DNA from: an uncultured Candidatus Saccharibacteria bacterium
GTDB lineage: Bacteria > Patescibacteriota > Minisyncoccia > Minisyncoccales > PEYH01
Reading direction: 5' to 3'
DNA length: 45,753 nt
NCBI GenBank assembly: GCA_964616145.1
Contig: CAZTRD010000004.1
Coordinates: 17,777 to 63,529 of the forward strand
Shown here: positions 1-39,159 of the stretch, piece after piece
How the letters are laid out: each line of letters opens with the position of its first letter
How positions within the stretch are numbered: the stretch's first letter is position 1
Notes under the pieces: model-generated
What the model saw: the letters and a program-made list of their open reading frames with translations, nothing else
Told to the model about the DNA's origin: nothing
Database searches by the model: none
Position numbers and translations under genes: made by a program

Positions 1-213
1 ACGCGTGAGCTTCGTCTTACTAGATTTAAGTATGGAGGATTTAGAGCGGAAGTATCTTTTAGTAGAAGTGTTTCCGGATGGCATAGAATCTCTCTTAAAG
101 ACTTTTATAAATGTTATTTAGAAGCTAAAGAAAGAAATGTTTTATTTCTAGTTTCTACATCCGAAGCAATAGAGAAAGAATTAAAAATGCAAGTAGCTGT
201 TGAGGGATTATAA
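1..213 (+). CDS. 3' end of hypothetical protein (5'-truncated), carries shared C-terminal tail ...EKELKMQVAVEGL
   Basis: Frame 1 open from base 1 to TAA 211-213, translated by hand; next ATG at 215. Confidence 0.75.
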   Translation, partial: TRELRLTRFKYGGFRAEVSFSRSVSGWHRISLKDFYKCYLEAKERNVLFLVSTSEAIEKELKMQVAVEGL

Positions 214-214
214 A

Positions 215-1174
215 ATGGGTAAACTAATTTTAAAAGATATAACCTGTGTACCGAATTCTGTATGCGATATAGTTAAACGTTTTTATCCGCACTCGATTGA
301 TGAACTAATTTTCGAAGGGGCTAAAAACAAACTTAAATTATTGAATAATACTCCTGTAGCTTATGCTTACGTTACTTTAAAAGAAGAGAAGATAGATCCT
401 GTAAATTATTGGAGGATGTCGAACGAAGAGAGGGAAAGAAAAACTAAATATATATTTTTAATAACAGGAGATTTTGTAGTAAAGAAAACTCGTTTTTGTA
501 ATATTAAAATTCACTTTCGTTCGTACTCGCATAGTGATAGTCTATTTATTAGACTTTGGGGACATTCTACAAATATATTATACGAAGGTTTAGAATATAA
601 TTTTAAACGACTTTTAAAGACAGACGGTCCTGAAGTTGTATATCAATTCTACGATAAGGATATTTATTGGAATATAATACCTAAAATGGATGCTGTTAAA
701 AATATTTTAGCCGATTTTATTGTAGGATATTCTAGATTTACTAGATGGAGTAATGTAGAAAATATAGAAACTTTTTTTAATAAAGAAGTTTATGATGCAA
801 ACTTATATCTTGCTAAACGATTTATAGTTTCTAGATTTAAAAACGAAAATCTTAGAATAGATGAATTTAATTTATATATAACTACTGATGGTTTAGGAAA
901 TAAAGTTATGAAAAATACATGTGGTTTAAAAAGAAGTGCAACCAGGTGTATTTTAGATCCTCTACAAAATATCTTAAGATTTAAAGAAAATGCGGAGCAT
1001 AAGTTTGTAGTTGAAAACGAAGATGCTATAAGATCAAATAAAGTACTAAAAAATTTTTTTTTAGAGTCTTACTACACTACAGCTCTTATCCCCTATATGT
1101 ATTCTGAAAAAATTCCTTTAACAGATAGAGTACTATCTGAACTGGTGAGTCAAAGAACTTTGGAGATTTTGTAA
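215..1174 (+). CDS. hypothetical protein with shared C-terminal tail (...SQRTLEIL)
   Basis: ORF track 200..1174; in-frame ATG at 215 directly after the upstream stop is the likelier start. Confidence 0.8.
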   Translation: MGKLILKDITCVPNSVCDIVKRFYPHSIDELIFEGAKNKLKLLNNTPVAYAYVTLKEEKIDPVNYWRMSNEERERKTKYIFLITGDFVVKKTRFCNIKIHFRSYSHSDSLFIRLWGHSTNILYEGLEYNFKRLLKTDGPEVVYQFYDKDIYWNIIPKMDAVKNILADFIVGYSRFTRWSNVENIETFFNKEVYDANLYLAKRFIVSRFKNENLRIDEFNLYITTDGLGNKVMKNTCGLKRSATRCILDPLQNILRFKENAEHKFVVENEDAIRSNKVLKNFFLESYYTTALIPYMYSEKIPLTDRVLSELVSQRTLEIL

Positions 1175-1175
1175 A

Positions 1176-1586
1176 ATGAGTGTGCAGTACTATCGCAAAT
1201 TTTCTAAATACAGAGCACGGAAAAATCCTAATATTGATGTGCTGGCAGAATTTGTGATGCCCTGCACTCTAAGTGTTACGGATGATATTGTTTTTATGAT
1301 AAAAACAATAGATATTTGTAGGAGGAAAAAAGATAATCACTTCGTTATATTTGATACTCGTTATAAGCTGGATTGTGCTACCAGACGTTTTAATAAATAT
1401 ATAAGTTCAGCCACAGATAATCTACATACTATTAGTACTCAATATGGATGGCTGTTAGACCAAAAATTTACCGCTAAACTAATACGCGCTGGATTGCTTA
1501 TATCTTTATGTAAAGCTGTAGATAAAGATAAGTTACTAAAAATAATGCAGGAAATAAAAGCATGTATAACTGCCTCTCTTCTGTAA
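1176..1586 (+). CDS. hypothetical protein with shared C-terminal tail (...KACITASLL)
   Basis: 136-aa ORF tightly packed between neighbours. Confidence 0.8.
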   Translation: MSVQYYRKFSKYRARKNPNIDVLAEFVMPCTLSVTDDIVFMIKTIDICRRKKDNHFVIFDTRYKLDCATRRFNKYISSATDNLHTISTQYGWLLDQKFTAKLIRAGLLISLCKAVDKDKLLKIMQEIKACITASLL

Positions 1587-1595
1587 GGAACTTAA

Positions 1596-2876
1596 ATGAC
1601 TACATCCGAACTTTTACCTATATTACAAAAGATGGTTGATGAACTTAGAGGAACATCGTCAATTTTATCTAAGAAAGATATTTTAAAGAAATATGCGAAT
1701 TTAAAAGACATTTTATATCTGATATATAATCCTTACCATCAATTCTATGTAACATCAAAACAATTGGCAGGTAAGTCCATAATTCCCGGATATACAGATT
1801 TAGAAGTTTTGTTAAAAGATTTACGTACACGTAAAATTACAGGACACGCTGCTGCCGGAGCGATTAATGGTTTAATCGCATTACATCCTAATTATACAGA
1901 ATTGATTTGTAGTATTTTAGATAAGGATCTGCAGGTGCGTATAAATTCAGCAACTATAAATAGTGTTTGGGAAGATCTGATTCCAACATTTAAAGTGGCT
2001 CTCGCTAATTCTTACGCTAAGGTTGATCCTGATTTTAGGAAAGAAGTTTGGTATGCTAGCCGTAAGATGGACGGATTAAGATTAATAACTAAGATAGATG
2101 CTGAAGGAGAGTGTTCATTCTTTTCTAGGAAGGGAAAGGAATTACATACTTTAAATATTTTAGAGCAAGCTGTAAAAGAATTAAATCTTAGGAACACTGT
2201 CTTAGACGGCGAGCTTTGCAATATAAACTCAGAAGGTGTGGAAGACTTTCAAAGTATTATGAAGGAGGTTCATAAACTTAAACACACTATAGAAAATCCA
2301 CATTATTTGATATTCGATATCTTATCTACGGAGGAATTTGAAAACAGTATAAGTAAGGGTAATTATTTAGATAAAAGAATGTCTCTCTTAAAATCTCTTA
2401 TAAAAGATAATAATAAGTTTCTTAAGAGAGTTAAACAGACTAGAGTACGTTCTATAGCACATGTAGTAAGAATGCAGGATATGGCTATAGCTCAGGGATG
2501 GGAGGGTTTAATCCTTAGGAAGAATACTGAATACGAAGGAAAAAGAAGTAACAATATGCTTAAGGTTAAACAGTTTTTTGACGATGAATTCGAAGTCAAG
2601 AAACTGGAAAATCATATCATCCCCGTAACTGATGGTTCTAGCATAACTCCTGAAGATATGTTGGGAGCTGTAGAGATAGAATATAAAGGATATACTGTAA
2701 GAGTTGGTAGTGGGTTTTCTCTAGACCAGAGACGTCTCTACTACAAGTATCCTGAAAAGCTTTTAGGAGCTACAATAACAGTGCAGTATTTTGCTGAATC
2801 CCGGGATCAGGATGGAAACCTGTCCTTACGTTTCCCCACTGTTAAAGCAATATATGAAAGTGGAAGAGATGTTTAG
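1596..2876 (+). CDS. lig: ATP-dependent DNA ligase
   Basis: KMDG adenylation motif, LDGEL, FDIL, EGLILR, KVK, VGSGFS and LRFP motifs; AAGGA RBS. Confidence 0.96.
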   Translation: MTTSELLPILQKMVDELRGTSSILSKKDILKKYANLKDILYLIYNPYHQFYVTSKQLAGKSIIPGYTDLEVLLKDLRTRKITGHAAAGAINGLIALHPNYTELICSILDKDLQVRINSATINSVWEDLIPTFKVALANSYAKVDPDFRKEVWYASRKMDGLRLITKIDAEGECSFFSRKGKELHTLNILEQAVKELNLRNTVLDGELCNINSEGVEDFQSIMKEVHKLKHTIENPHYLIFDILSTEEFENSISKGNYLDKRMSLLKSLIKDNNKFLKRVKQTRVRSIAHVVRMQDMAIAQGWEGLILRKNTEYEGKRSNNMLKVKQFFDDEFEVKKLENHIIPVTDGSSITPEDMLGAVEIEYKGYTVRVGSGFSLDQRRLYYKYPEKLLGATITVQYFAESRDQDGNLSLRFPTVKAIYESGRDV

Positions 2877-2932: not shown

Positions 2933-2954
2933 TGTTTTGTTAATGGAGATATCT

Positions 2955-4659
2955 GTGAGTGAATTGGTAGTTGAAATAGCTGATAATGCTTATAAGATAA
3001 AATATTGGGTTCCAGAAATGTCTCTTAACGAGCCGGGGAATGAGACCTTTGTCGGTGTCGATACAGAGACGGAGGAGATAATCCCTGGAGCCCTAACTAT
3101 TCCTGTTATACTACAGGTTTGTTACCCATCGCAAAGATTAGTGCATATTATAAAAGCCGAACATATGCAGACATATTTGGAAAGAATGTTAGCAAAAAAT
3201 CCTTCTCTAGAATTAATATTCCATTCAGCCCCCTTCGACTTAAATGTTTTAGGTTTTTCTAAAGAGCATATCCTATTTAAACATTTGGAAAAAGGAAAGA
3301 TAATAGATATAAGTATTCGTTATATTTTAACAGCTTTGGATGTTGGTTCTTATATAAACACATATAATTTAGCATTTATATCTAAAGAAATTTTAGGTGA
3401 AAATCTAGATAAAGGTGCCGGAGTTAGACTAACATTTAAGGCTTTTGGAGAACTTACTGATAATCATTTAGTTTATGCTGCTACGGATGCCATAGTCACT
3501 GCTCTGCTTAGAGCAGCTCTACCAGTTAAACAGGCAACAGAGGATTGGCAGCTTAAGGGATATATAGCTTTAAATAATATTTCAGATAATGGGATGTTGG
3601 TTGATAAAGAATATGTGGTGGCTTTAAGAAATAAGTTGAACGAAAGGAAAGATACTCACTTAGAAATACTTAATACTTTTGGATGGTATCCGGGACTTAG
3701 TGGGAATAATGCTGTATTGCAGGAAGTGTTGGCAAATATGGAAGATAGGATTGGAGTTAAGTTCCCGAAGACTCCGAAGAATAAGGAGATAAGTCTTACA
3801 GACGAACTCCTACAATCTTTCGAAGGAAATGTCCATCCTTTTATAACAGCTTATAAAGAATATAAGCATATAGAAAAGCTTATAGAAACATATTTAGGAG
3901 ATGATCTTATTGGTGTGGATGGGAGAGTTCATCCACATTTCAATCCTTTAGTGCTTACTGGCCGGACATCCTGCGCTCGTCCGAATCTTCAAAATATACC
4001 AAAAGGAGATGATATAAGAGGGATATATACAGCCCCTCCTAAAAACTATCTACTATCAGTAGATTATTCGCAGCTAGAACTGTGCGCTTTAGCCGAACAC
4101 TGTTTAAAATATTTTGGACAGTCTAAGATGGCAGAACTTATTAATGCTGATATAGATTTACATAGTTGGTTTGGAGATGAGATTATAAAAGCTGAAGGTA
4201 AAGATCCTTTAAATTGTACTGAGGAAGATCGTAAGTTCCACAGGCAACTTGCAAAATCTTGCGGGTTCGGTTACCCAGGGGGTTTAGGCCCCGATACATT
4301 TACATCCTTTGCTAAAGGATATGGTTTGAATATAGATAGGGATAAGGCTTTGGAACTTAAGAAGATTTGGCTGAATACATTCCCAGAAATGACACAGCAT
4401 CTAAGACCTAAGTTAGATATTATGTGGACGGAAAACTATATAAAAAGATTTATATACAAACATATGAAAGAGTTTAAGAATCAAAAAGAAGCTTCTAGGA
4501 TAGTTAAATTAGAAGAGTTGGATTGGTTTTTAGAGAACGAAGGGCGTTCCCCAAGAGAAAGAGATGGAGCTCGCTTTTCAGTTCAGATGTATATGGCAAA
4601 TACTGTTACAGGTAGAGTTAAAAGAAACTGCACATACTGCGCTGCCTGCAACTATCCGT
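2955..4659 (+). CDS. polA: family A DNA polymerase, exon 1 (3'-5' exonuclease plus polymerase motifs A and B)
   Basis: DTETE, FDL and YAATDA exo motifs; TGRTS, NLQNIP, DYSQLE, RQLAK..FG; homology stops at CNYP; GTG 2955 follows a GGAG RBS (track start 2937). Confidence 0.93.
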
Positions 4660-5590
4660 CAAATGAGGCGGATATAAAATGGGGTGAATTCGGAGAAAGT
4701 CTTTGACAAATCATCTTGTAACAAGTAATTTATTACTAGGTGATGATAACTCCGAGCCAAGTTTTAGTGGAAACACTTTAAAAGGCGTAACGACTAGTCG
4801 TCAGTTCTATGAAGACAAGACGGCCACGAGCGCCCCACACCAAATGGTGATGATATAGTCTGAACTATTACATTTGTCAAGAAGTGATATACGATGATTG
4901 GTAAAGAACAAAAGTTAAAGTTAAATCGTGAGCGTAATGTACGTTATCGTGCGAAGCTAACCCCTGCTCAAAAACAAGCGAAATATTTAAAAGATAGAGT
5001 TAGGTTACTGGAACAACGTAAACAACGAATATCTCAAAATGATGTCTTGTTGACAGAAGATAAACGTATATGTTCAAGATGTTTTAAGAAAAAAAGTTTG
5101 TCTGAATTTTCCACCAAAGGGATATGCAAAAGTAAATACACAGATATGTGTGATATCTGTAGGATAAAGATTTATAAATCGGAAGCATACACACCTATAT
5201 TTATGACAGAGACTTGGTGGAGAAAAAAAGCGTATTGTGCGAATTCTTGTTTTATGCAGCGAATTAAACGGATAAAGATAGGAAACATTACCAATACTTT
5301 TAAAAAAGTATCTGGGCCAGATGTATTGCAATTATACACTAAGCAATCTGCTAAGTGTGTATATTGTGATAAAGATCTTTCTGACGGGATGTTCCAAATT
5401 GATCACATAACTCCACTTAGTAAACAAGGGACACATTCTATTGAAAATCTTCAATTATTATGTATTGAATGCAATCGTTTAAAACATACGACTACAGACA
5501 CGGAATTTCGTTCTTTATTGAAAGATTATTATCGTAGATTATCTCAAGTAATAGAACATGAGGATAAAGAACCTCATGGATAACAAATTG
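4660..5590 (+). mobile_element. group I self-splicing intron in the DNA polymerase gene
   Basis: P1 TATCCGT^C/GGCGGATA with U:G at the 5' splice site; GACTA (~4792) and GATATAGTCT (~4852) P7 strands; terminal G at 5590; splicing restores NYPFQGLAAD. Confidence 0.93.
4894..5583 (+). CDS. intron-encoded HNH homing endonuclease
   Basis: CVYC...IDHITPLSKQGTHSIENLQLLCIECNRLK HNH motif; N-terminal CxxC pairs; lies inside the intron. Confidence 0.92.
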   Translation: MIGKEQKLKLNRERNVRYRAKLTPAQKQAKYLKDRVRLLEQRKQRISQNDVLLTEDKRICSRCFKKKSLSEFSTKGICKSKYTDMCDICRIKIYKSEAYTPIFMTETWWRKKAYCANSCFMQRIKRIKIGNITNTFKKVSGPDVLQLYTKQSAKCVYCDKDLSDGMFQIDHITPLSKQGTHSIENLQLLCIECNRLKHTTTDTEFRSLLKDYYRRLSQVIEHEDKEPHG

Positions 5591-7209: not shown

Positions 7210-7280
7210 GGGGGACTTGTATTAGGAATGTACTTTAGATACATATGTACAATCTCCGTATACAAACTCCCCCTTATTTT
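7210..7280 (+). terminator. long intergenic hairpin followed by a T-rich tract
   Basis: GGGGGA-C-TTGTAT ... ATACAA-AC-TCCCCC then TTATTTT. Confidence 0.5.
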
Positions 7281-7284
7281 TAAT

Positions 7285-8559
7285 ATGATTAGAAGAAAGA
7301 AACAAAGTTCTACAGTATTCGATCCTGGGCAGCTTTCTATCCAACTTAGAGAGAATGCTACTAAAGCTTATCCAGACAACATAGTTTCACAGAAGGATTT
7401 ATTGGACTCCGTATACGGAGTATCTCTAGAAAACAACATCCCTCTCCAATATGTTTTAGGAGTAGATGTTTTAGCTTTAGGTAGATGTATGAGTTTGGTT
7501 GGAAGTTGGGGATCTTCAAAATCTTCTTTAGGATGGTATATAGCTAAGATGTTTTTGGAAATAGGTGGTTTAGTTGTTGGAATAGATACCGAACATAAAC
7601 AGAATCCAGATCAGGTACGTGCTATAATAGATAATGATGTTTTATTTGAAAGAATTATATACAGCAAAGCAGATAGTTTAGATCAAATGTTAGATTTTAT
7701 GTTTTTCTGGACTAAGGAGTACGAAAGACTTATTCCCGATAAGAATGTACCGATGTTGATTTTGGTAGATAGTTTGAATGCAGTAACATCTGAAAAAGCT
7801 GGTGAAGAGAGAATGGCTGGCTCTGAAACTACTGGATATTCTGCGGCTAGGAATGCTGGTGAAATAAGTGATGCCATGAAGTCTTTCGTTCCTAAATGTT
7901 TGGACAGAAATCCTATATTAGCTGTTATTATCAACCACCAAAAAATTGATATATCCAAGATGGTGATGCCGGGAAGAGCTGCCCCAACGCATGAGCCTGG
8001 AGGAGTTCATAAAGATTTTGCGTATACTTGGAAATTGGAATTGAAGAAGGCTGAAACTCGTAAATCTGTGTACGGAGAGATTCCGTATTTTAAGATTAAG
8101 GGAGGTAAATCTTCTTTAGGTGTACAAAAGAAGTATGCAATTTCAGTTCCGTATAAAAGTAGTTACGCAGACGATTTGGAACATATTCACTACGATTGGG
8201 ATGAGTCTTTAGCTGATCTCCTAACTAGTGATGCGGTATCTTCTACATTACTAAAAGATATAATGCATTTAACTAAGGCCGGAAATAAGTATACAAGTAA
8301 GACTCTGAATTTGGAAGGAGTTACTGCTTCTGAAATAGGTAGAGCAATACATGCTGATAAAGAATTATCCAAAAGAATTAAAGAAGATTTGCTGCATATA
8401 CGTATTAAAAGAAAATTTGGAGGTATAGATGATACCGACTCCGGAAGCGAAGGAACTTCTAAACCAGCGTCTGCAGAGAATATCGAAGGAAATGCAGAAC
8501 CAGGAAGTACTATTATCGAACCGCTCGACGAATATGTTGAAGAGGAAAATGGCGGTTAG
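7285..8559 (+). CDS. recA: RecA/UvsX-like recombinase
   Basis: Walker A variant GSWGSSKS, IDTEH, ILVDSL, IINHQ, PGG; ATG 7285 preferred because track start 7228 lies inside the hairpin. Confidence 0.85.
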   Translation: MIRRKKQSSTVFDPGQLSIQLRENATKAYPDNIVSQKDLLDSVYGVSLENNIPLQYVLGVDVLALGRCMSLVGSWGSSKSSLGWYIAKMFLEIGGLVVGIDTEHKQNPDQVRAIIDNDVLFERIIYSKADSLDQMLDFMFFWTKEYERLIPDKNVPMLILVDSLNAVTSEKAGEERMAGSETTGYSAARNAGEISDAMKSFVPKCLDRNPILAVIINHQKIDISKMVMPGRAAPTHEPGGVHKDFAYTWKLELKKAETRKSVYGEIPYFKIKGGKSSLGVQKKYAISVPYKSSYADDLEHIHYDWDESLADLLTSDAVSSTLLKDIMHLTKAGNKYTSKTLNLEGVTASEIGRAIHADKELSKRIKEDLLHIRIKRKFGGIDDTDSGSEGTSKPASAENIEGNAEPGSTIIEPLDEYVEEENGG

Positions 8560-29975: not shown

Positions 29976-29986
29976 GAAAGAAATAA

Positions 29987-30118: not shown

Positions 30119-30502
30119 ATGTTTGTTGTGTACAACGCTGTGGATGATGAATTTCTATCTAAGTTTAATAAAAAAGAACCTCTAGAATCTCTGTTCGATT
30201 ATAAATACGAGTTTTTAGCAGATATTCGAGAGACTACAGAAGACTTTGCTGTTTTTTCCACAGCAGAAGATGCCCAAAAAGTTTGTGATATTCTTACGGA
30301 AGCATGTCTGGATGATATGATGGAAGGTGCGGCTAAACCGACTAAACCGGCAAAAATGTCGGACGAAGCCTTTAGAGATTCGTTGAAAGAAGACGTAAGT
30401 TTTATAGTTAGAGAAATAGTTGAGAAAAAGGTTTGGGGATTGACTGATGATGAAGATGAGTATGAAGATGAGGATGATTATGAAGATGAGGATGAACTAT
30501 AA
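30119..30502 (+). CDS. highly acidic hypothetical protein
   Basis: C-terminal DDEDEYEDEDDYEDEDEL; AGGAG RBS. Confidence 0.8.
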   Translation: MFVVYNAVDDEFLSKFNKKEPLESLFDYKYEFLADIRETTEDFAVFSTAEDAQKVCDILTEACLDDMMEGAAKPTKPAKMSDEAFRDSLKEDVSFIVREIVEKKVWGLTDDEDEYEDEDDYEDEDEL

Positions 30503-30635
30503 ATTTTAATTAATTTGCATAGGGTACTATATTCGGAGACAAATGTTTTCGATTTTAAGTTTTGTCGGAGTAGTGTCATGGGATGGCTAGGTGTTTTAGG
30601 AATGTTTTTACTAATCCTTCATTTTGGAGTGTGAT

Positions 30636-30869
30636 ATGGATGATGGTCCTGAACTTAGAGAAACGAAGCTGGCTAAGAAAGTGCTAGAGTTTGAACTTGA
30701 GTTTGGAAATGGTTCTCACAACTCAACATTATTCGATAGTATAGTAGATTTGCTTATTACTAAAGGAATAACAAGTAAGGAAGAAGTTTTGGATTTTGTT
30801 GAAAAAGCTTTAGATAGTAAGACTGCACTTAAGAGAGCCCACAAATCAACTCAATCAAGGATGTTTTAA
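30636..30869 (+). CDS. hypothetical protein
   Basis: GGAG RBS before ATG 30636. Confidence 0.65.
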   Translation: MDDGPELRETKLAKKVLEFELEFGNGSHNSTLFDSIVDLLITKGITSKEEVLDFVEKALDSKTALKRAHKSTQSRMF

Positions 30870-31037
30870 ATGGCAAGCGCAGTAGGTAAGAAAGCACGAA
30901 AAGCCGGTGGGAATAGATACACTATTAAAAGACGGAAGAGTGCGGAAAAGCATGGGAAAGTGTTTGACAATTCTGTTCTAAAGCCGGAAGCATATAGACA
31001 GAAGAAGGCTGCACATAAGAAAGAACTTAGTAAGTAA
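30870..31037 (+). CDS. small, very basic 55-aa protein (not in ORF track)
   Basis: MASAVGKKARKAGGNRYTIKRRKSAEKHGKVFDNSVLKPEAYRQKKAAHKKELSK; ATG directly after the upstream TAA. Confidence 0.7.
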   Translation: MASAVGKKARKAGGNRYTIKRRKSAEKHGKVFDNSVLKPEAYRQKKAAHKKELSK

Positions 31038-31048
31038 AAAGTCAACCA

Positions 31049-31207
31049 GAAGAGGTATGCCTTAGTAAACACCTAGCGGTGAGTTAATGTAGATTGAATA
31101 CAAAGAGAAACTGTATGTTTGGTTGAGCATAGTTGTCTTGAGTAACAATCACTAGTCCGAATTGTGTGTTTACTAAGACGGTGGGGACCCCACCTTACAG
31201 CCTCTTC
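31049..31207 (+). ncRNA. candidate structured RNA
   Basis: GAAGAGG/CCTCTTC, 12-bp CTTAGTAAACAC/GTGTTTACTAAG, GGTGGG-GAC-CCCACC. Confidence 0.6.
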
Positions 31208-31216
31208 GTTTTGTAA

Positions 31217-31291
31217 GCCCCTGTCGTTCAACGGATAGGACCACGATCTTCTAAATCGTTAACGGTAGTTCAATTCTACCCAGGGGTTCCA
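31217..31291 (+). tRNA. tRNA-Arg(TCT)
   Basis: GCCCCTG/CAGGGGT-T-CCA; ACGAT-CTTCTAA-ATCGT. Confidence 0.92.
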
Positions 31292-31315
31292 CTTTTTAAA
31301 ATTACTGGAGTTTGT

Positions 31316-31501
31316 ATGTGTAAATGTAAGTATTGCGGAAAAGAAATTGAAAATACCCCTTTCTGCAGCGAGCTATGTGAAAGTGAATATATTAAGGGAC
31401 TGAATTCACAAATAGATTTTGTATATCCGGATGGTTTTGATATCTTTCTAAAAGAAATTTTTGAAGATTTAGGGGCGAGTAACTCAATTGGTTTAGAGTA
31501 A
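31316..31501 (+). CDS. small Zn-finger-like protein
   Basis: CKYC...FCSELC; GGAG RBS; 3' end overlaps tRNA-Ile. Confidence 0.6.
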   Translation: MCKCKYCGKEIENTPFCSELCESEYIKGLNSQIDFVYPDGFDIFLKEIFEDLGASNSIGLE

Positions 31502-31550
31502 TGTCCTGATATGGCATAAGTTAAAGGTTCAAATCCTTTCTCGCCCACCA
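31473..31550 (+). tRNA. tRNA-Ile(GAT)
   Basis: GGGCGAG/CTCGCCC-A-CCA; CTGATAT loop. Confidence 0.92.
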
Positions 31551-31560
31551 AAGGATCAAT

Positions 31561-31746
31561 ATGGAAACTGCGGTTTTACCTACGAAGAGTGATGTGAATT
31601 GGATTAAGTGTACTCTGTGTCAGAAGACTGGATGGGTGCCGAAAGAAGGGTGTCCTAAAGGACCTATTAAAAAAAGACTTTTTATACTGAATAAGAAACA
31701 TAAAGTTTGCGAAACATGTTTAAATAAAATATTTTTAAAAAAGTAG
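31561..31746 (+). CDS. small Zn-finger-like protein
   Basis: CTLC...CETC. Confidence 0.65.
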   Translation: METAVLPTKSDVNWIKCTLCQKTGWVPKEGCPKGPIKKRLFILNKKHKVCETCLNKIFLKK

Positions 31747-31751
31747 TTTAA

Positions 31752-31828
31752 GGGGCTATAGCTTAGTTGCTTAAAGCGCGTGATTTGCACTCACGAGATC
31801 GGGGGTTGGAAGCCCTCTGGCTCCACCA
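31752..31828 (+). tRNA. tRNA-Ala(TGC) with C19:G56 elbow swap
   Basis: GGGGCTA/TGGCTCC-A-CCA with G3:U70; TTTGCAC loop; T-loop TTGGAAG. Confidence 0.9.
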
Positions 31829-31875
31829 TTTTATTTGTCTTGTTGGTCTTCGGGTCGGCAATACGGAAAGTGGAA

Positions 31876-32121
31876 ATGTTAATTATTAGAATCAATTTTA
31901 TAAATTGGTGTTTTATTCTTAAGGGGGATATATGGATTGCTGAAAATGAACGGGGTGGAATATTTTATAATTTGGTTGAAAGCTTTAAGTATCTTTTGGA
32001 GAAGAAGGATTTGGAAAATATGTTAGAATTTTGGAGAGCACATAAAGTAAAAGGTTCTGAAGAAGATTTCGAATCTTTTGCAAAGTGGTTTAAGAATGAA
32101 TATGCTGCAAGCTTATTGTGA
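31876..32121 (+). CDS. small paralog-family protein with shared C-terminal tail (...KWFKNEYAASLL)
   Basis: Track ORF 31780 overlaps a tRNA; in-frame ATG 31876 used. Confidence 0.75.
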   Translation: MLIIRINFINWCFILKGDIWIAENERGGIFYNLVESFKYLLEKKDLENMLEFWRAHKVKGSEEDFESFAKWFKNEYAASLL

Positions 32122-32366
32122 GACTTAATATGTTTACTTTGAAAGGTAGTAGTGGAACTGTTTATGATTTTTCTTTTGAAGAGGAGAGGTGGGTAGCTAG
32201 ATGTAGGAGTGATACGGATATAGTTTTTGATACATTGGATTTTGGTTTTGTAGAATTGAGTGAACTGGATTTAAAGGCTTTTGAAATGAGTTTGATAAGA
32301 GGTACTAAAGAATTTAAAGAATTTTGTAAGTGGTACAGAAGAGAGTTAGCTCTCCATCTGTTGTAA
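32118..32366 (+). CDS. small paralog-family protein with shared C-terminal tail (...KWYRRELALHLL)
   Basis: GTGA-coupled ORF. Confidence 0.75.
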   Translation: MRLNMFTLKGSSGTVYDFSFEEERWVARCRSDTDIVFDTLDFGFVELSELDLKAFEMSLIRGTKEFKEFCKWYRRELALHLL

Positions 32367-32381
32367 ATTAAAGGAAGTGAT

Positions 32382-33035
32382 ATGAATGCATTTTTTAAAA
32401 CGATGGTATGTATAAATACGGTTGCTATTATTGTTCTACTGTATTTTATTTATTCTAGTAGAATTATACTAAAGGATATGAATACAGAAATAGCTACTGT
32501 ACATAAGAATAATGAAAATCTATTTAATTTAATGGGGGATGAACTTAGAAATATAAATAATGATGAGATATATGCATACATCAAAAAAGAATTGGAAACT
32601 TTAAGATACACATCTGTATTCGATAAGATTTCCATAGAAGATAAGCAGGAGGAACTATCTCTAAGAGTCGATTCAGTAGTTACTGAACTGCTTAACAGAT
32701 TAGGAGATATAAAAACAAATTTTGAATGTAAGTTAAAGAGTAATACAGATTCTGTACTAAAGATAGTTAAACAAAATAATGAAGATACTCAGACAGCTAT
32801 TCAAGAAACTCTACAAAAACTTTCTGTATTAGATAAGAGAGTTGTGGAAAATGAAGTTTTAGCTGTTAAAATTAAATCTCTAGAAAATACTTTGAATACT
32901 GCTGTAGAGTTGATGAAGATTGAGGTTGGAAAGCTTTCTGCTGAAATTGCCAAAGAAGCTGCTGAAAAGAGACTTATACATTACAATTACGACGCTGTAC
33001 TACAGATAGAGAAGCAAAAAGGAAAAGTAAAGTGA
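32382..33035 (+). CDS. N-terminally anchored coiled-coil membrane protein
   Basis: Single N-terminal TM then long heptad-rich region. Confidence 0.7.
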   Translation: MNAFFKTMVCINTVAIIVLLYFIYSSRIILKDMNTEIATVHKNNENLFNLMGDELRNINNDEIYAYIKKELETLRYTSVFDKISIEDKQEELSLRVDSVVTELLNRLGDIKTNFECKLKSNTDSVLKIVKQNNEDTQTAIQETLQKLSVLDKRVVENEVLAVKIKSLENTLNTAVELMKIEVGKLSAEIAKEAAEKRLIHYNYDAVLQIEKQKGKVK

Positions 33036-33232
33036 AAAGAGAAAAAGCTACTGTAGACATAGATAGGGCTATAGAAGATATTTCAGATATGTATGCAGTA
33101 AAATTTGACTTTAAGGAATCTCTAATAGAGTCCGGAGAGTACGATAAACTTTTGGATATATATAAAGCCAAGGGTGGGGAAAAGATCAAAGATAAGTTGA
33201 TAGATCTGCTTTTAGGAAATGTAGAGATGTGA
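33032..33232 (+). CDS. hypothetical protein
   Basis: GTGA-coupled 66-aa ORF. Confidence 0.65.
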   Translation: MKREKATVDIDRAIEDISDMYAVKFDFKESLIESGEYDKLLDIYKAKGGEKIKDKLIDLLLGNVEM

Positions 33233-33278
33233 TGGTGGAAGTAGAAAATAAGTTTTTGGTAAGATTATTAAAATGTAT

Positions 33279-33356
33279 GCGCCTGTAGCTCAGCTGGTTA
33301 TGAGTGGGGCTCTTATAAGGCTCAGGTCCTAGGTTCAAATCCTAGCGGGCGCACCA
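33279..33356 (+). tRNA. tRNA-Ile(TAT), copy 1
   Basis: GCGCCTG/CGGGCGC-A-CCA; GGGCT-CTTATAA-GGCTC. Confidence 0.9.
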
Positions 33357-33426
33357 CTTTTAGGAAATGTAGAGATGTGATGGTGGAAGTAGAAAATAAG
33401 TTTTTGGTAAGATTATTAAAATGTAT

Positions 33427-33504
33427 GCGCCTGTAGCTCAGCTGGTTATGAGTGGGGCTCTTATAAGGCTCAGGTCCTAGGTTCAAATCCTAGCGGGCGC
33501 ACCA
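33427..33504 (+). tRNA. tRNA-Ile(TAT), copy 2
   Basis: Identical to copy 1. Confidence 0.88.
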
Positions 33505-33723
33505 CTTTTGGAATGGATCTTTTATCTATATTACCGGAATAGATTAAGCGCTGGAAAGACTTTTTTTGTGAGCAGTAATTCAAAGTAAGTTGGTCTCTAA
33601 CTGAAATGTATGTGGCCAAAAATAAACTCTTTCCAAATATGTATAGGGGAGTAGCGGGGAAGCAAAGTTTTAACTGCGGTGTCAGAGCACATCCTATACA
33701 TTTTTAACAATTAAGGAATTAAA

Positions 33724-34038
33724 ATGCCATACATAAAAGAAAAATATAGAACCGAAGTACAATCCGACTTAGATCATTTAGTATTTAATATTATAAAAAT
33801 TAGAGATGAGAATAATTTAAAAGATATGGACTTGCTAGGAATCTTAAATTACTGTATAACCACTCTAATACTTCTCTTCGTATCTCGTACAGCCGGTAAA
33901 ATCAGATATTATCTTATTGCTGGAATTACCGGTGTTCTAGAAAATGTGAAGCAGGAGTTTTACAGAAAAGTTGCTGCCGGATATGAAGATGTTAAGGAAG
34001 AAGAAGAGGGAGAAGTCGGATATTCCCGAATATTATGA
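33724..34038 (+). CDS. conserved phage protein (DUF6899-like)
   Basis: MPYIK...LNYCIT...EFYRKVAAGYED pattern. Confidence 0.6.
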   Translation: MPYIKEKYRTEVQSDLDHLVFNIIKIRDENNLKDMDLLGILNYCITTLILLFVSRTAGKIRYYLIAGITGVLENVKQEFYRKVAAGYEDVKEEEEGEVGYSRIL

Positions 34039-34105
34039 GTTTAGTAAAATTTACAGATAATACGTATTCTGTAATTATAAAGTTATTTGGAGAACGGAGT
34101 GTGAA

Positions 34106-34261
34106 ATGAAATATAAAAAGCATTTGGAGACGGAAACTGATAAAAGAGCCTGTAAGAATGAATGTGCTGTCGGGACATCTACTACTAAATATAGAGAAGT
34201 TACCTGCAAAACATGTAAGAATACATATGAATATATTTGGTTAAAAACCATGTCTAATTAG
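34106..34261 (+). CDS. small Cys-containing protein (51 aa, not in track)
   Basis: GGAG RBS; MKYKKH...VTCKTCK. Confidence 0.5.
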   Translation: MKYKKHLETETDKRACKNECAVGTSTTKYREVTCKTCKNTYEYIWLKTMSN

Positions 34262-34270
34262 GGGATTTTT

Positions 34271-34825
34271 ATGCAGCACAGACTTAAAGGAATGCGGTGC
34301 TATCTTTCTGGAGCTATGGATAGAGTAGATGATAAGGGAGTTATTTGGAGAAGATGGATAACTGAGTTCCTAAAATCTTTAGGAGTTATAGTACTCGATC
34401 CTAGCGATAAGAAGATGTATGGGGATGTTAAGTTTAAAATAGAACAGAAAGATTTTAGAAGAGATTGTCTGGATAAGGAAAAATTCGATAGTTTACAAAT
34501 AGAAACTAAAGCACTGCGTTCCGTAGATTTAAGGATGGTGGATATTTCAGATTTTGTAATAGTTTATCTAGATAACAGACAGACTGCCTGCGGAACTTTT
34601 GAAGAGTTATTTAAAGCTAATCTAAGTAAGAAACCTGTTTTGATTGTAGTTGAGCAGGGGAAGAAGGAAGCTTTCGCATGGTTGTTCGGAGTGATCCCTC
34701 ACGAACATATTTTTGAAGACTGGGATTCTTTAAAAACTTATTTGGTAAAAGTACATACAGATGAAACTGTACTAACATATAAGAGATGGATCTTCTTTGA
34801 TTATGATAAGCTTACAGCGGTGTAA
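34271..34825 (+). CDS. nucleoside 2-deoxyribosyltransferase-like protein
   Basis: YLSGAM, DL..VDISD, GTFEEL, KPV motifs. Confidence 0.8.
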   Translation: MQHRLKGMRCYLSGAMDRVDDKGVIWRRWITEFLKSLGVIVLDPSDKKMYGDVKFKIEQKDFRRDCLDKEKFDSLQIETKALRSVDLRMVDISDFVIVYLDNRQTACGTFEELFKANLSKKPVLIVVEQGKKEAFAWLFGVIPHEHIFEDWDSLKTYLVKVHTDETVLTYKRWIFFDYDKLTAV

Positions 34826-34827
34826 TT

Positions 34828-35160
34828 ATGCGTAGAGGTCCTTTAGTACATAAACCTTTTATCTTAACTATAAATGTTAAAGATATTATCCAGGAATGGT
34901 TGTTAATATTTAGGATGGGGCCTAAATTTTCCAGTTTTAAAGCATATGAAATGTTTATAAAAACTATAACGGATACTTGTGAAGTCAGATATTCATTAAT
35001 AAGATTTTGTAAACATGAAGTGTATTATAAGGATTATCAGCATATATTTGGATTTTATTGCTCGGATATTACAGAAGCCAATATTCCTCTCTTTCTGGAA
35101 GAGTGGCGGAGGGTGTGGTTGGTAGAAGGTTTTGACGGATTTTGGTATAGAACAAAATAA
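34828..35160 (+). CDS. hypothetical protein
   Basis: 110-aa ORF. Confidence 0.65.
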   Translation: MRRGPLVHKPFILTINVKDIIQEWLLIFRMGPKFSSFKAYEMFIKTITDTCEVRYSLIRFCKHEVYYKDYQHIFGFYCSDITEANIPLFLEEWRRVWLVEGFDGFWYRTK

Positions 35161-35239
35161 AGGCCTGATACGGCAGAATCTCTCTACTCGTGTCTTTAAT
35201 CTCCACTATACTTTTTAGTTACCAACAGGAGCTCGTGTA

Positions 35240-35395
35240 ATGGGTAAAAAAGTAGCTATTCTCAGGTGTGCGTGCAGATGGTGTGGTAAGACCGTGTACA
35301 CAAAGACAGTCCCTTATAAGAACGAGCCTGAAAAGATTTTAAAATGTGTTTGTGAAGAGTGTGAAGAAGTTGCACGGAATATAAAATACGCTTGA
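35240..35395 (+). CDS. small Zn-finger-like protein (51 aa, not in track)
   Basis: AGGAG RBS; CRWC...CEEC. Confidence 0.55.
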   Translation: MGKKVAILRCACRWCGKTVYTKTVPYKNEPEKILKCVCEECEEVARNIKYA

Positions 35396-35403
35396 GTGCA
35401 TTA

Positions 35404-35476
35404 CGGGGTGTGGGGTAACGGTATCCCGTCTGCTTTGGGTGCAGAAGATTTGCAGGTTCGAATCCTGCCACCTCGA
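35404..35476 (+). tRNA. tRNA-Pro(TGG)
   Basis: CGGGGTG/CACCTCG-A; TCTGC-TTTGGGT-GCAGA. Confidence 0.9.
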
Positions 35477-35504
35477 TAGTTAAGATTTAATTTAGGAATT
35501 TAGG

Positions 35505-36443
35505 ATGATAAAAATATCCCCGAGAACTTGGGAGACTTTAGAAAATGATGCTAAAAATATTTTAAAAACTAATATGGAATATGCTGTAAGTTTTTTAAGT
35601 TTATTTGAAGAGAATTTATCGGATATAATTGTATGCTCGATGGTTTCTAAAGGAGGACAGGGTATACAAGTTAAATATAGTGATTTGTCAACAGCTCTGA
35701 ATAATAACGATAAATACGAATGTGATGTGTACTTTCACGTTAACGGAGGAGGAACTAAGCAAGCTAAAATTAATAAAATTAGAGCCTCCTTCATAGATAT
35801 AGATGTTGGAAGAGATAAGAATGGTAATTATCTACAGAACAATATTGTTAAGAAGAGGAAGGAGGATATAAAATATTATATAACTAATTGCGCAGCTCCT
35901 CCCTCAATAATTTCGGAAACAAGAAATGGATATCACTGTTATTGGTTATTTGATAATACTTTAGATGGACACTCGCCGATGGATTTAGAGAAGTGGAGGG
36001 AGATTCAGCAAAGCTTACTAAAATATTTTGAGCCTGTAGGTGGCGATAGGATGGCCTTAAAGATAAATCAGCTTCTGCGTGTTCCAGGAACTATGTGGAA
36101 AAAGAAATGGACTGGTTTACCAAATACTTCTGTAGTTTACGTCTGTACAGGTAATAAATATACGATAGATTCTTTACATGCCTCTCTAATACCAGCCCCA
36201 GTAAAGAAGATGAATTGGGGGAGTCCTTCTGATCTTACTGCAAAAAAAACTGTAAATACAGGTACTTCCACAACAGTTTCCAATACGGTTTTGGGAACAG
36301 TTATGGAGACTATGAATTTTCTGGCTTTTGTAGCTTATCAAGCTAAACTTGAAAACAAGTATTTTTTACTACAGACTGCGGAAAGGCTTGCTAAAGAATT
36401 AGCATTTCATCACAATCTGTCAGTCGTAATTCCCAAGGTGTGA
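35505..36443 (+). CDS. RepB-like / AEP-superfamily primase domain protein
   Basis: FIDID, ETRNGYHCYW and LLRVPGT motifs. Confidence 0.8.
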   Translation: MIKISPRTWETLENDAKNILKTNMEYAVSFLSLFEENLSDIIVCSMVSKGGQGIQVKYSDLSTALNNNDKYECDVYFHVNGGGTKQAKINKIRASFIDIDVGRDKNGNYLQNNIVKKRKEDIKYYITNCAAPPSIISETRNGYHCYWLFDNTLDGHSPMDLEKWREIQQSLLKYFEPVGGDRMALKINQLLRVPGTMWKKKWTGLPNTSVVYVCTGNKYTIDSLHASLIPAPVKKMNWGSPSDLTAKKTVNTGTSTTVSNTVLGTVMETMNFLAFVAYQAKLENKYFLLQTAERLAKELAFHHNLSVVIPKV

Positions 36444-36603
36444 AATGGAAAAAGATGGTAATACGAAAAACAAGAAAGACAATATCAATACTATTTGTAG
36501 AAAATGTGGAAGGGATAAGTATATTAGTAAGGTTAATGAAAATCTTACAGGATGTGTAGTTCACTGCCCTTCCTGTAAGCATAGACTAGCTAGATTTGAG
36601 TGA

Positions 36604-36678
36604 TACGGGGAGGATGTTAATTTCCAGGCGAGTCTCATAAATTCGTCCACGTGGGTGTGATTCCCACCCCCGTTACCA
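36604..36678 (+). tRNA. tRNA-Met(CAT), initiator-like with atypical D- and T-loops
   Basis: TACGGGG/CCCCGTT-A-CCA (1:72 mismatch), CTCATAA loop, T-loop TGTGATT. Confidence 0.75.
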
Positions 36679-36737
36679 TCTTTTAGTTTGACTTCTATTC
36701 TTCTGGGTGCTAATAGTACAGCAAAAAGGAGAATAGA

Positions 36738-36791
36738 ATGCCAAACATTAATTCATGGAAAGCAGCCGGAAAAGTCACAGCTAAATTTTAA
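36738..36791 (+). CDS. putative 17-aa leader peptide MPNINSWKAAGKVTAKF with hairpin-sequestered RBS
   Basis: AAGGAG RBS; TTCTATTCTTCT (36693-36704) pairs with AGGAGAATAGAA (36727-36738). Confidence 0.4.
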   Translation: MPNINSWKAAGKVTAKF

Positions 36792-36816
36792 GCAAATTGT
36801 AAAAAGGAGAAAGTAG

Positions 36817-37335
36817 ATGAAGGTTTCTGTGAGTGAAGCTCTACGTTTGAAAAATGAAATTATAAAGATGGTGCATACGACCTTAGGAGATACCCGTATA
36901 GCTGAATACGGTGTTACTACTGAAGATGATAAACCTGTTACGGAAAGAGAAAGTTGTGAGAAGTTTCCAGAAGTATATGCTAAACTTTGTAAGATCTTTT
37001 CTATAAGTCATCAAATAAATTCCGTATTAGCTAAATATGATGTGGAAAGCGGCATTTCAGATTTGGTTAGATCCTTAAAGAATAACGAAGCATTGCTTAC
37101 GGTTTTAACCGATGCTTTAAGATTAAAAGATAGCACACAGATTACGTATCAAGCTATAGGGAATAAGAGAGTAGAAGTTAAGAGGCATTTCACTCCTTAC
37201 GTTCCTATAAAAGAGATTAAGTGTAAGATAACTCTTTTGAAGAAGGAGATAAGAGATATAAAAAGAGATATAGATAAGAAAAATTTGGAAACTATAGAAC
37301 TTCCATTCGAACATACGGAACTGGATTCTTTCTAA
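36817..37335 (+). CDS. DIP1984/DUF6847 (septicolysin-like) coiled-coil protein
   Basis: N-terminal VSEALRLKNEI and C-terminal IDKKNLETIEL match the recalled family pattern; AAGGAG RBS. Confidence 0.6.
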   Translation: MKVSVSEALRLKNEIIKMVHTTLGDTRIAEYGVTTEDDKPVTERESCEKFPEVYAKLCKIFSISHQINSVLAKYDVESGISDLVRSLKNNEALLTVLTDALRLKDSTQITYQAIGNKRVEVKRHFTPYVPIKEIKCKITLLKKEIRDIKRDIDKKNLETIELPFEHTELDSF

Positions 37336-37342
37336 GAGATTT

Positions 37343-37578
37343 TGTAAATCCTGGTTACTACGAATAGGTGTCTAACCGAATTTAGACTAGGGTTCTCCAC
37401 ACCGAATTGAGGAGAGGTTAGCTCTTTCATCCATAAAATTGCATTTGCATTAATTTTTTTAGAAAAATTAAAATACTGATGTAAAATGTAAAGAGTAAAC
37501 TGTAATACGTACTGACTGTTTACAGTCGCGTTAAACGTAGAATGTATGCACGTGACTTTCCGAAAACCAGGATTTACA
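37343..37578 (+). ncRNA. candidate structured RNA with repeated loops and phased 7-nt repeats
   Basis: Perfect 14-bp terminal stem TGTAAATCCTGGTT/AACCAGGATTTACA; two CCGAAT-loop hairpins; GTA every 7 nt. Confidence 0.7.
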
Positions 37579-37591
37579 TATTTTTATATAA

Positions 37592-37610
37592 AAAGTGCAC
37601 AAAAGTGCAC
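37592..37610. promoter_or_regulatory. AAAGTGCACAAAAGTGCAC motif, copy 2
   Basis: Identical to 5973-5991. Confidence 0.5.
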
Positions 37611-37618
37611 TTAAAATT

Positions 37619-37693
37619 GTGACCGTAGCTCAATTGGCTAGAGCGCTCGGATGTGGCCCGGGAGGTTGCTGGGTTCAAGTCCCGCCGGTCACC
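37619..37693 (+). tRNA. tRNA-His(GTG), no encoded G-1, bulged T-stem
   Basis: GTGACCG/CGGTCAC-C; CTCGG-ATGTGGC-CCGGG. Confidence 0.8.
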
Positions 37694-37848
37694 TTATAGA
37701 TTTTGGGTACCTGGAAAGATGTTTGGTTGTTTACCTGATTGCGTGTGTGGTATTAAATGATTTTCTATTTTATAGAAAATAACGAAGATAATGACGCAGT
37801 GTCTTCACATGTCTCCAAACATCCTTTCCAATTTTTTAAGGAAAAAGT

Positions 37849-38244
37849 ATGAATGTTACCGACTTTGTTGAACAAGCTAAGAAATATAGAGAAGCTGTTA
37901 GAGAAGTTAATGAAAAAGTAAAAAAGGATCTCGCATTCAATCCGATGGAGTGTAGAATTCATAGGGGGAACTTCGCAGCTCTGATCTATTTCGAAGAATG
38001 GGATGGGAGTATTCTCATTCAAGTAGGTACAGAGGATGTTATATTGGATACTACATATACGAAACCAGTTCCTAATACTACCTTCCCTGTTTCTGGAATA
38101 ACTACTGAATTTCTAGAGCTTCTGGATAGTAAATTTAAAGAAGCTATAAACTGGGTTCAAGGAAAAGCAGAAAACTTTCCTACAGATGATTGCGAAAAGA
38201 AGCATAAGAAAAGGGCTAGGAAGGCGTTGAAGGATAGAGTTTAA
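37849..38244 (+). CDS. hypothetical protein
   Basis: AAGGA RBS, 131 aa. Confidence 0.75.
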   Translation: MNVTDFVEQAKKYREAVREVNEKVKKDLAFNPMECRIHRGNFAALIYFEEWDGSILIQVGTEDVILDTTYTKPVPNTTFPVSGITTEFLELLDSKFKEAINWVQGKAENFPTDDCEKKHKKRARKALKDRV

Positions 38245-38261
38245 GTTTTTAGGAGGTTTTT

Positions 38262-38594
38262 ATGCGTTCTTTAGAACAACCTAAAGAATATACTCAGAAA
38301 GCAGATATTCAGGACATTTTAGTAAAAAACATAAATAAGTTTGTTATGGTTAGAGGATACTTCTTTGCAATTAAAGGTATATTAAAAGAACTTACCAAAG
38401 TTCTTTCTAACGAATTAGCTTTGGAACATAGAAAACTTTCTGAAGGGTTTTTGGAAAAGAACGGATCTTTTGTTGTATCGGTTAAAAATGGAAGAAATTT
38501 GGCTAATGTAGTTGTTTTTGCAGATAGTATTATTTCCATAGCCTCCCAAGATGATTTACCGATTGTTATAAGGACAAAGATGCCTGGAAAATAA
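38262..38594 (+). CDS. hypothetical protein
   Basis: AGGAGG RBS, 110 aa. Confidence 0.75.
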   Translation: MRSLEQPKEYTQKADIQDILVKNINKFVMVRGYFFAIKGILKELTKVLSNELALEHRKLSEGFLEKNGSFVVSVKNGRNLANVVVFADSIISIASQDDLPIVIRTKMPGK

Positions 38595-38687
38595 GAGCGG
38601 GCTGCTAAGATTGGTGGTTTAGCGCTGGTCTGTAAAACCAGTCCCTTAGGGTATATAACAATGTAGGTCCGATTCCTACCCCGCTCA
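38595..38687 (+). tRNA. tRNA-Tyr(GTA)
   Basis: GAGCGGG/CCCGCTC-A; CTGGT-CTGTAAA-ACCAG; long variable region; T-loop TCCGATT. Confidence 0.85.
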
Positions 38688-38698
38688 GGGAGAAGAAT

Positions 38699-38899
38699 AT
38701 GAAGGTGTATGATTGGCATATACTATGTAGATGTTTGGATGAATGTGTTTGTGGAGGATATCCGGGAGCTCTGCATACATTTTCTAAAAAGATATGTGTA
38801 GAGTGTCCTAGATGTGGTAAGCATACTTCTTACGGAGAATCTTGGGAATGTATGGTGGAGTGGAATAAGAAAATACGTAAGGAAAAGTTAAAAGAATGA
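38699..38899 (+). CDS. small Zn-ribbon protein (Lar-like)
   Basis: CVCGG...VECPRCG...EWN. Confidence 0.6.
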   Translation: MKVYDWHILCRCLDECVCGGYPGALHTFSKKICVECPRCGKHTSYGESWECMVEWNKKIRKEKLKE

Positions 38900-39159
38900 T
38901 GTTTACCATACTGTTTGAGAGTAAATTTCCTTCTAGGAGGGAGTTTAAACTTATATTTTATAAGGAGAAAGGCTGTTGGATAACTATATGTGATGGAAAA
39001 CATGTTAATATGAAAGAAGAGGTGTTTAAGTTTAAATATCCTCAAAACAAAGAGGTACTAAGTAGACTCCTCAACTACGCATATGTTACCGGAAATTTAG
39101 CAGAATATGCTGAATTTAGAAAATGGTTTATAAATGAATTGGCTGCAGAACTTTTGTAA
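38896..39159 (+). CDS. small paralog-family protein with shared C-terminal tail (...KWFINELAAELL)
   Basis: Similar to 31876 and 32118 (W[IV]x motif, FxKW[FY]). Confidence 0.75.
   Translation: MMFTILFESKFPSRREFKLIFYKEKGCWITICDGKHVNMKEEVFKFKYPQNKEVLSRLLNYAYVTGNLAEYAEFRKWFINELAAELL

Follow-up and report, generated by a model that had tools for sequence, protein, structure and literature searches.

Why do nine phage proteins, most of them with no detectable relationship, end in the same short peptide? The question is raised by a 45,753-nt stretch of contig CAZTRD010000004.1 (assembly GCA_964616145.1, positions 17,777 to 63,529; hereafter the window, G000:C4:17777-63529 in our numbering), whose 5′ edge lies directly after a 100-N scaffold gap. 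An initial annotation had noticed that nine open reading frames (ORFs) carry a C-terminal tail in fixed register with the stop codon, and had suggested a tag or docking system, possibly served by a MoxR ATPase and a vWA-domain peptidase encoded nearby. We find that the tail motif is real, anchored at the stop codon and specific to the phage. We lean, tentatively, toward reading it as a recognition tag that fast-evolving accessory proteins share at their C-termini. The phage genome, of about 173 kb, is split over contigs C4, C5, C9, and C17, as judged by synteny with a 159-kb IMG/VR contig (G001); replication and accessory genes lie on C4 and C5, and structural genes on C9, C17, and the end of C5. 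Apart from the phage, the 1.32-Mb bin consists of a small bacterial genome that is 99.2% complete and encodes a transfer-messenger RNA (tmRNA) of its own.

The nine terminal 13-mers were recovered exactly as first annotated, all on the + strand. At the 5′ edge, an ORF whose own 5′ end is lost in the scaffold gap (1-213, tail EKELKMQVAVEGL; terminal profile score 26.9, leave-one-out 13.8) is followed by two orphan ORFs of 324 aa from a TTG start (200-1174, LSELVSQRTLEIL; leave-one-out 7.1) and 136 aa (1176-1586, MQEIKACITASLL), both without a Pfam or PHROG match. Three more orphans, of 148 aa (18299-18745, MNELKAQLAIDLL), 222 aa (18742-19410, FSKLKGYEAVEAL; again without a Pfam or PHROG match), and 225 aa (19388-20065, MKEFKAEISVKAL), stand directly upstream of genes for a MoxR-like ATPase (20082-21278) and a DUF2201_N+DUF2201 vWA-peptidase (21334-22629), as the initial annotation had it. 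The last three, of 81 aa (31876-32121, AKWFKNEYAASLL), 82 aa (32118-32366, CKWYRRELALHLL), and 87 aa (38896-39159, RKWFINELAAELL), are paralogs. The first of these probably starts at ATG 31876, because the longer frame, 31780-32121, runs into a tRNA-Ala gene (31752-31828) that its stretch 31780-31875 overlaps. The residue preferences originally described also hold: Leu at −1, A/V/I/L at −4, A/S/T at −5, and L/I/F/Y at −10 in 9/9 tails, and Q/E at −7 and K/R at −9 in 7/9 each. ORFs throughout were taken from a greedy longest-ORF caller rather than a gene finder, and some of those counted in the denominators, chiefly minus-strand ones, are false. By this count the tail is found on 9/80 ORFs of the window, 15/80 of which end in Leu, and it is missing from every recognizable enzyme.

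As the initial annotation had proposed, we built a stop-anchored profile from the nine tails, with BLOSUM pseudocounts, and ranked all 1657 ORFs of the bin against shuffled controls. Leave-one-out scores of the nine ranged from 6.6 to 20.5 bits. The 21 top-scoring C-termini of the bin were all on C4 (13 genes) or C5 (8 genes), which adds 12 tails outside the window, in tandem arrays at C4 4430-5919 and C5 4293-4724, 32421-33464, 35447-35932, and 37789-38779. With the original nine excluded, 12/244 phage ORFs reached at least 8 bits at the C-terminus, compared with 23/48377 internal positions, so that the terminal rate is ~100 times the internal one. In the rest of the bin, 0/1404 C-termini reached this score. 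Two hundred residue shuffles gave a mean of 0.05 matches and a maximum of 1, as against the 21 observed. ORFs ending in Leu are likewise more frequent in the phage (44/253) than in the rest of the bin (109/1404), where Leu content is equal. The structural contigs C9 (0/36 ORFs) and C17 (0/21) have no tail genes.

These controls leave next to no likelihood that the tails arise by chance, from base composition, or from an element acting at the DNA level (a promoter, a terminator, or a recombination site, for example) that lies over the gene ends. The genome is AT-rich (30-39% GC, the range seen in the window), which might favor such an origin; yet a related phage genome of 40% GC (G002) lacks tails and another of 39% GC (G001) has them, and Leu content is 8-9% in all five genomes compared. 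A DNA-level element was rejected on the coding of the tails themselves. Six codons (TTA, TTG, CTG, CTA, CTC, and CTT) encode the last two Leu residues, stop codons of all three kinds are used, and no conserved DNA was found 3′ of the stop codons of the tail genes. Such variation in the Leu codons, with no conservation beyond the stop, places selection on the peptide.

The tail consensus in this phage runs roughly hydrophobic, K/R, x, E/Q/Y, hydrophobic, A, hydrophobic, x, L, L, stop. Mean pairwise BLOSUM62 scores are above background from −1 to −12 and at background (about −0.9) from −13 to −40. Hydrophobic residues dominate five of the last six positions, −9 is often basic, and −10 often aromatic or aliphatic. 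An AlphaFold2 model of ORF 38896-39159, of low confidence (mean predicted local distance difference test (pLDDT) score 60.5), places the tail in a terminal helix, residues 68-86, that follows a small sheet; a Foldseek search with this model against the PDB gave no match at E ≤ 0.001.

Outside the tail, the carriers have little in common. They range from 81 to 324 aa, and BLASTP linked only the last three of the nine window ORFs (E 5e-4 and 1e-4), the same three that had looked paralogous at the outset. The match between the ORFs ending at 1586 and 18745 is confined to their last 21 residues. Among all tail carriers of the phage, BLASTP gave few links, and these were between neighbors. When 17 carrier groups were compared with hhalign at full length, the best alignments ran tail to tail; after removal of the last 14 residues, the highest probability over the 136 pairs was 3.3%. 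Database searches were similarly unproductive. At E ≤ 0.01 the nine window carriers matched no PHROG, and none of their Pfam matches had an E value below 0.11; 69 tail proteins from four phages gave one credible Pfam match (zf-BED, 9.5e-6), three marginal ones, and 0/69 matches to PHROGs. ORF 19388-20065 searched against 5.8 billion proteins returned solely a fragment of itself, and an ESM Atlas search with ORF 18299-18745 returned no relative. A profile of the three window paralogs, run against 1.84 billion representatives, recovered nothing but the paralogs and one Sel1-repeat protein. This last protein (P0005, 858 aa) matched through nine Sel1-type repeats, the terminal helix G..EF.EF.KW[FY]..E.A of the paralogs resembling the first helix of the repeat; the likeness is probably a convergence between helices. 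Together, these data support the original description of a short module whose register is set by the stop codon and whose carriers have no detectable mutual similarity.

To this point the tail is known from one phage. We found relatives by searching IMG/VR with the MoxR and vWA proteins; a capsid-based search for further members of the phage lineage returned G001 alone, and megablast of window 17900-22700 found no close cultured phage. G001 is a close relative, with 45% MoxR identity and 64-66 ORFs in common with the window phage (G000). G002, G003, and G004 have 4-6 ORFs in common with G000 and G001 (BLASTP E ≤ 1e-3), namely the pair, an HNH endonuclease, a ligase, and the like. At least six further phage contigs had stop-anchored tails, with a separate consensus for each; by BLAST these contigs overlap with the G000 phage in little beyond one MoxR/vWA-peptidase subclade. 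ORFs ending in Leu number 53/241 in G001, 39/193 in G003, and 15/66 in G004, and 9/243 in G002.

For comparison across genomes we used a consensus-free rule (terminal L, hydrophobic residues at −4 and −5, and neither P nor G). A stop-anchored self-similarity index, likewise free of a consensus, was too noisy for use. The rule was met at the C-termini of 17/195 ORFs in G000, 28/209 in G001, 13/124 in G003, and 8/57 in G004 (8.7-14%), compared with 1.1-1.3% of internal positions in every genome. The local consensus is A-h-x-L-L in G000, V-V-E-E-L in G001, [DE][DE]-h-h-M-E-x-L in G003, and h-V-D-x-L in G004 (h, hydrophobic). Cross-scoring of these consensuses gave positive values on the diagonal (8.9, 3.6, 2.9, and 0.5) and negative values at every off-diagonal position. 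Despite the local consensus, G000, G003, and a further contig, L117, agree in K/R at −9 and L at −1; in L117, 9/29 ORFs satisfy the rule and 11/29 end in Leu. L117 belongs to a metagenome-assembled genome labeled Candidatus Woesearchaeota (a DPANN archaeon) and encodes the MoxR/vWA-peptidase pair along with its dense tail ORFs. Host assignment by binning is unreliable both for L117 and for the window phage, which was placed in a small bacterial bin.

The gene pair through which these relatives were found is the candidate partner of the tails. The MoxR-like AAA+ ATPase (20082-21278, + strand) has AAA_5 and Sigma54_activat matches near threshold and is 45%, 39%, 34%, and 32% identical to its homologs in L001, L015, L002, and L016, respectively. 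Its neighbor (21334-22629, + strand) is a metallopeptidase (DUF2201_N, 2.9e-38, with HExxH) fused to a vWA-like domain (DUF2201, 1.3e-11, with DxSGS..T..D). HExxH, DxSGS, GGTS, and TDG are kept in 12 vWA-peptidase homologs, with the residues of the metal ion-dependent adhesion site (MIDAS) present, and the vWA profile found no relative by sequence among solved structures. By tblastn, the vWA protein matched 640 phage records, all at <60% identity, and at 26-28% among the matches listed. We surveyed 79 loci around vWA homologs. All six loci with at least three rule-positive ORFs were among the ten nearest homologs, and rule-positive ORFs made up 36/379 in these near loci versus 8/1550 in the 69 far loci, none of which has two. 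The initial annotation had suggested testing whether tails co-occur with the MoxR/DUF2201 pair; in this survey tails kept to the vicinity of its nearest homologs, and G002, to which we return below, has the pair and no tails.

A tree was calculated from 43 of the 79 loci, those with the match start listed and a vWA ORF >300 aa. Rows with stop-anchored tails fell in one 9-row clade (Shimodaira-Hasegawa-like approximate likelihood ratio test (SH-aLRT) 89), with G002 and L045 just outside. Within the peptidase domain, an insertion of 17-35 residues follows LPxGxLIP (in the protein encoded by 21334-22629, residues ~118-145). It is carried by the window protein and those of L001, L015, L016, L039, L040, L041, and L044, all in the clade, and by L117, which lies outside the tree set; it is missing in the clade member L043, in G002, in L045, and in three of five far homologs. 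No conserved third gene stands beside the pair: phmmer over 54 neighboring ORFs linked only two within-genome paralog pairs. As another route to a reader, phyletic profiles singled out one G000 ORF present in G001 and G003 and absent from G002; it is an HNH endonuclease, and the candidate was rejected. In jumbo phages, the fused MoxR/vWA-peptidase pair has been described as a chaperone-cochaperone, with a proposed role in virion assembly and structural-protein processing (Iyer et al. 2021, PMC7824862), and in phage Bas54 a MoxR gene is needed to overcome a predicted defense system (PMC13716836).

We favor the recognition tag because the conserved part is only 12 residues long and ends sharply, because the carriers show no other similarity over lengths of 81-324 aa, because the tail is fixed to the stop codon, and because the design recurs, in local versions, in phages that share almost nothing else. 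A 12-residue C-terminal module under protein-level selection is borne by at least 21 orphan proteins from non-structural regions of the phage, nine of them in the window; in the reading we favor, one partner would recognize the C-terminal helix or plug of many different accessory proteins. The best candidate for that partner is the co-inherited MoxR ATPase and vWA-metallopeptidase pair, which may hold, remodel, or trim the tagged proteins. That the tail is recognized, and by which partner, we infer from sequence. A more specific version is that the MoxR/vWA subclade has its own client-tagging system, in which dozens of unrelated accessory proteins per genome would carry a C-terminal address that co-evolves with the machine; the clade-specific insertion in the peptidase domain would then be a candidate reader. 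Overall, we consider recognition by the pair, this version included, unlikely.

Several observations weigh against the recognition tag or against its assignment to the pair. The tail had been described as an amphipathic helix with a free terminal carboxylate, and neither feature held up in full. For the last 14 residues the helical hydrophobic moment is 0.178, compared with 0.273 for internal windows; because the moment is not raised, "hydrophobic C-terminal plug on a helix" fits better than "amphipathic helix." An acidic residue at −3 occurs in just 8/21 G000 tails, which weakens the interpretation first offered. A free Leu carboxylate is not universal: in L043 the motif is followed by 1-8 mostly charged residues, and L044 ends in EELV. 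The pair itself is present in hundreds of phages, and the sampled loci of these have no tails. In G002, a near relative, the pair is intact, HExxH and MIDAS residues included, and there are no tails, the rule being met by 1/181 ORFs (0.6%). Support for the tail-bearing clade is modest, SH-aLRT 89 coming from a quick search. Every tail-bearing phage was found via the pair, which places tails without the pair beyond the reach of the search; co-occurrence is thus not independent of phylogeny, and it may reflect common descent, host, or gene pool alone.

The remaining points against the tag concern descent. The main rival holds that one or a few fast-diverging families arose by tandem duplication and that the terminal helix is their best-kept structural or oligomerizing element, with no reader at all. 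We regard such hidden paralogy as somewhat unlikely, and as the alternative to be taken most seriously. Tail genes do lie in tandem arrays, as duplicated genes do (C4 4430-5919; C5 32421-33464 and 37789-38779; window 1-1586, 18299-20065, and 31876-32366), some neighboring carriers are detectable paralogs, and a genome-specific consensus is what expansion from a single founder would be expected to give. The low-confidence model of ORF 38896-39159 sets the tail helix beside a beta sheet. In the relatives, where the tail is also found on zinc-binding proteins, G001 provides an actual case: a family of 14 small paralogs (L013 15317 to L014 3089; G001 135317-143092) with conserved H, C, and CxxC, in which C-x2-C-x12-stop is invariant and the 12-residue tail is the helix from the second zinc knuckle, modeled at pLDDT above 90. 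Because 12/28 rule-positive G001 tails fall in this one family, part of the tail signal and Leu excess in the relatives is ordinary paralogy. The carrier profiles are shallow, and deep paralogy is hard to exclude from them, since clustering of non-tail parts failed to join the members of the zinc family itself.

Set against this, no similarity was left between carriers once the tails were removed, conservation ends sharply at −12, the carriers differ as widely in length as noted, and the tail occurs whether or not a protein has zinc-binding cysteines. Phages with almost no other common genes have tails of one stop-anchored design, in which −9 is K/R and −1 is L. Even if the carriers were paralogs, the tail would be their most constrained part.

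A different kind of recognition would be destruction. Non-polar C-termini such as the ssrA tag are read by proteases, and a hydrophobic end anchored at the stop codon could mark early accessory proteins for timed removal by a host protease such as ClpXP or FtsH. The mostly hydrophobic last six positions in G000 suit this explanation, ClpP genes are present in the bin (on C64 and C2), and the tagged genes are all non-structural. Tails of the relatives are, however, acidic at the end (VVEEL, IMExL, and IVDxL) or, in L043, followed by charged residues; the motif spans 12 residues with a conserved basic residue at −9; and a separate consensus in each phage is unexpected if conserved host proteases are the readers. 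Nor is there an obvious resemblance to the tmRNA tags: that of the host ends in YALA and that of the phage in PLAA, and the tails of this phage close with hydrophobic-x-L-L. Among protease families, S41, ClpP, and proteasome/HslV were seen on host contigs only or nowhere, and not on the phage contigs. We judge a C-terminal degron distinctly improbable.

The closest known analog in logic is the capsid targeting sequence of T4, carried by IPI, IPII, IPIII, and their relatives. There, as in G000, a short terminal peptide is the sole common feature of diverse, fast-evolving accessory or anti-defense proteins (PMC3012670, PMC13716836). In T4 the signal sits at the N-terminus, directs packaging, and is cut off by the prohead protease, whereas the G000 module is C-terminal and stop-anchored, its genes lie outside the structural modules, and it is known from sequence alone. 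The analogy raises a further possibility, that the tail routes its carriers into the procapsid, or marks them for ejection along with the DNA, and that the peptidase processes them. A diverse set of internal proteins with only a targeting sequence in common is what T4 offers as precedent (PMC3012670), and virion assembly with processing of structural proteins is the role proposed for the MoxR/vWA-peptidase pair (Iyer et al., PMC7824862). We nonetheless think packaging very unlikely: the structural contigs C9 and C17 are without tail genes, and ~21 to 40 tagged proteins per genome would be many for packaged cargo.

MoxR/vWA systems are a further point of comparison. The window encodes an AAA_5-type ATPase followed by a DUF2201_N peptidase and a DUF2201 vWA domain with MIDAS residues, the same peptidase-vWA fusion as that described for jumbo phages (Iyer et al. 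2021, PMC7824862). The published MoxR/vWA accounts, in their accessible portions, describe no client tag, and what links tail and pair here is their co-occurrence.

Two other comparisons bear on how such a tail might work. The C-terminal tail of HslU activates HslV, and docking tails occur on AAA+ partners; the G000 tail is similar in being a hydrophobic C-terminus that ends in Leu as a plug, and differs in that the HslU tail is one tail on one conserved protein. No HslU homolog was found in the G000 phage or G001, and the 99.2% complete bin gave no match to PF00227, the family of HslV-type proteases. The related phage contig L016 does encode an HslU-like AAA_2 ATPase (12353-13654), which ends in ENLSKYIL. 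Encapsulin cargo-loading peptides and clamp-binding motifs (QLxLxL, PIP box) bring many proteins to one hub through one short motif, and the G000 carriers resemble them in that many unrelated proteins have one short C-terminal motif in common. The version [EQ]-[LIV]-A-[AVL]-x-L-L is superficially like QLxLxL, which the relatives' versions do not fit. No encapsulin shell gene was found, and a search aimed at gp45-type clamps rather than the bacterial beta clamp gave no PF02916 match in G000 or G001-G004.

In the window as a whole, the long ORFs lie nearly all on the + strand. Pfam matches identify a DNA ligase (1596-2876), a family A DNA polymerase (2937-4706), an HNH endonuclease (4894-5583), a RecA-like protein (7228-8559), an anaerobic ribonucleotide reductase (15344-17950), and a glycosyltransferase (23208-23993). 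The reductase of G001 (L001 5080-8691) has 1203 aa, versus 868 aa for the window enzyme, and its alignment to the latter splits into two blocks (7-533 and 869-1201), on which basis it appears to carry an insert of ~335 aa, perhaps an intein. Nineteen tRNA genes lie among small ORFs at 25600-44974, including two for tRNA-Ile(UAU) and three for tRNA-Leu. The phage also encodes a tmRNA (G000:C5 26052-26435; locus L005 6052-6435) with the tag AESFPLAA, which differs from that of the host tmRNA (C1 66428-66796, tag ANFFATPAYALA). A 127-aa ORF at 30119-30502 has a long acidic C-terminal run (EDEYEDEDDYEDEDEL) and ends in Leu outside the tail motif.

Terminal tags as devices are already known. In main texts, we found no published account of a C-terminal tag that is anchored at the stop codon, sits on roughly a tenth of the ORFs of a phage, and follows a subclade of the MoxR/vWA-peptidase pair. 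The genes of large phages are for the most part orphans without a route to function. If the tail proves to be merely a structural helix of hidden paralogs, it would define a large lineage-specific family and supply a simple sequence signature for its members. If it is a tag, shared by 8-14% of ORFs in several phages that are otherwise unrelated, it would group such orphans and predict a common partner for them. Recognition by the pair would give a role to the widespread phage MoxR/vWA machinery, whose clients could then be traced from sequence alone, and the function of the MoxR/vWA-peptidase pair, so far just proposed to be assembly or processing (PMC7824862), would become testable.

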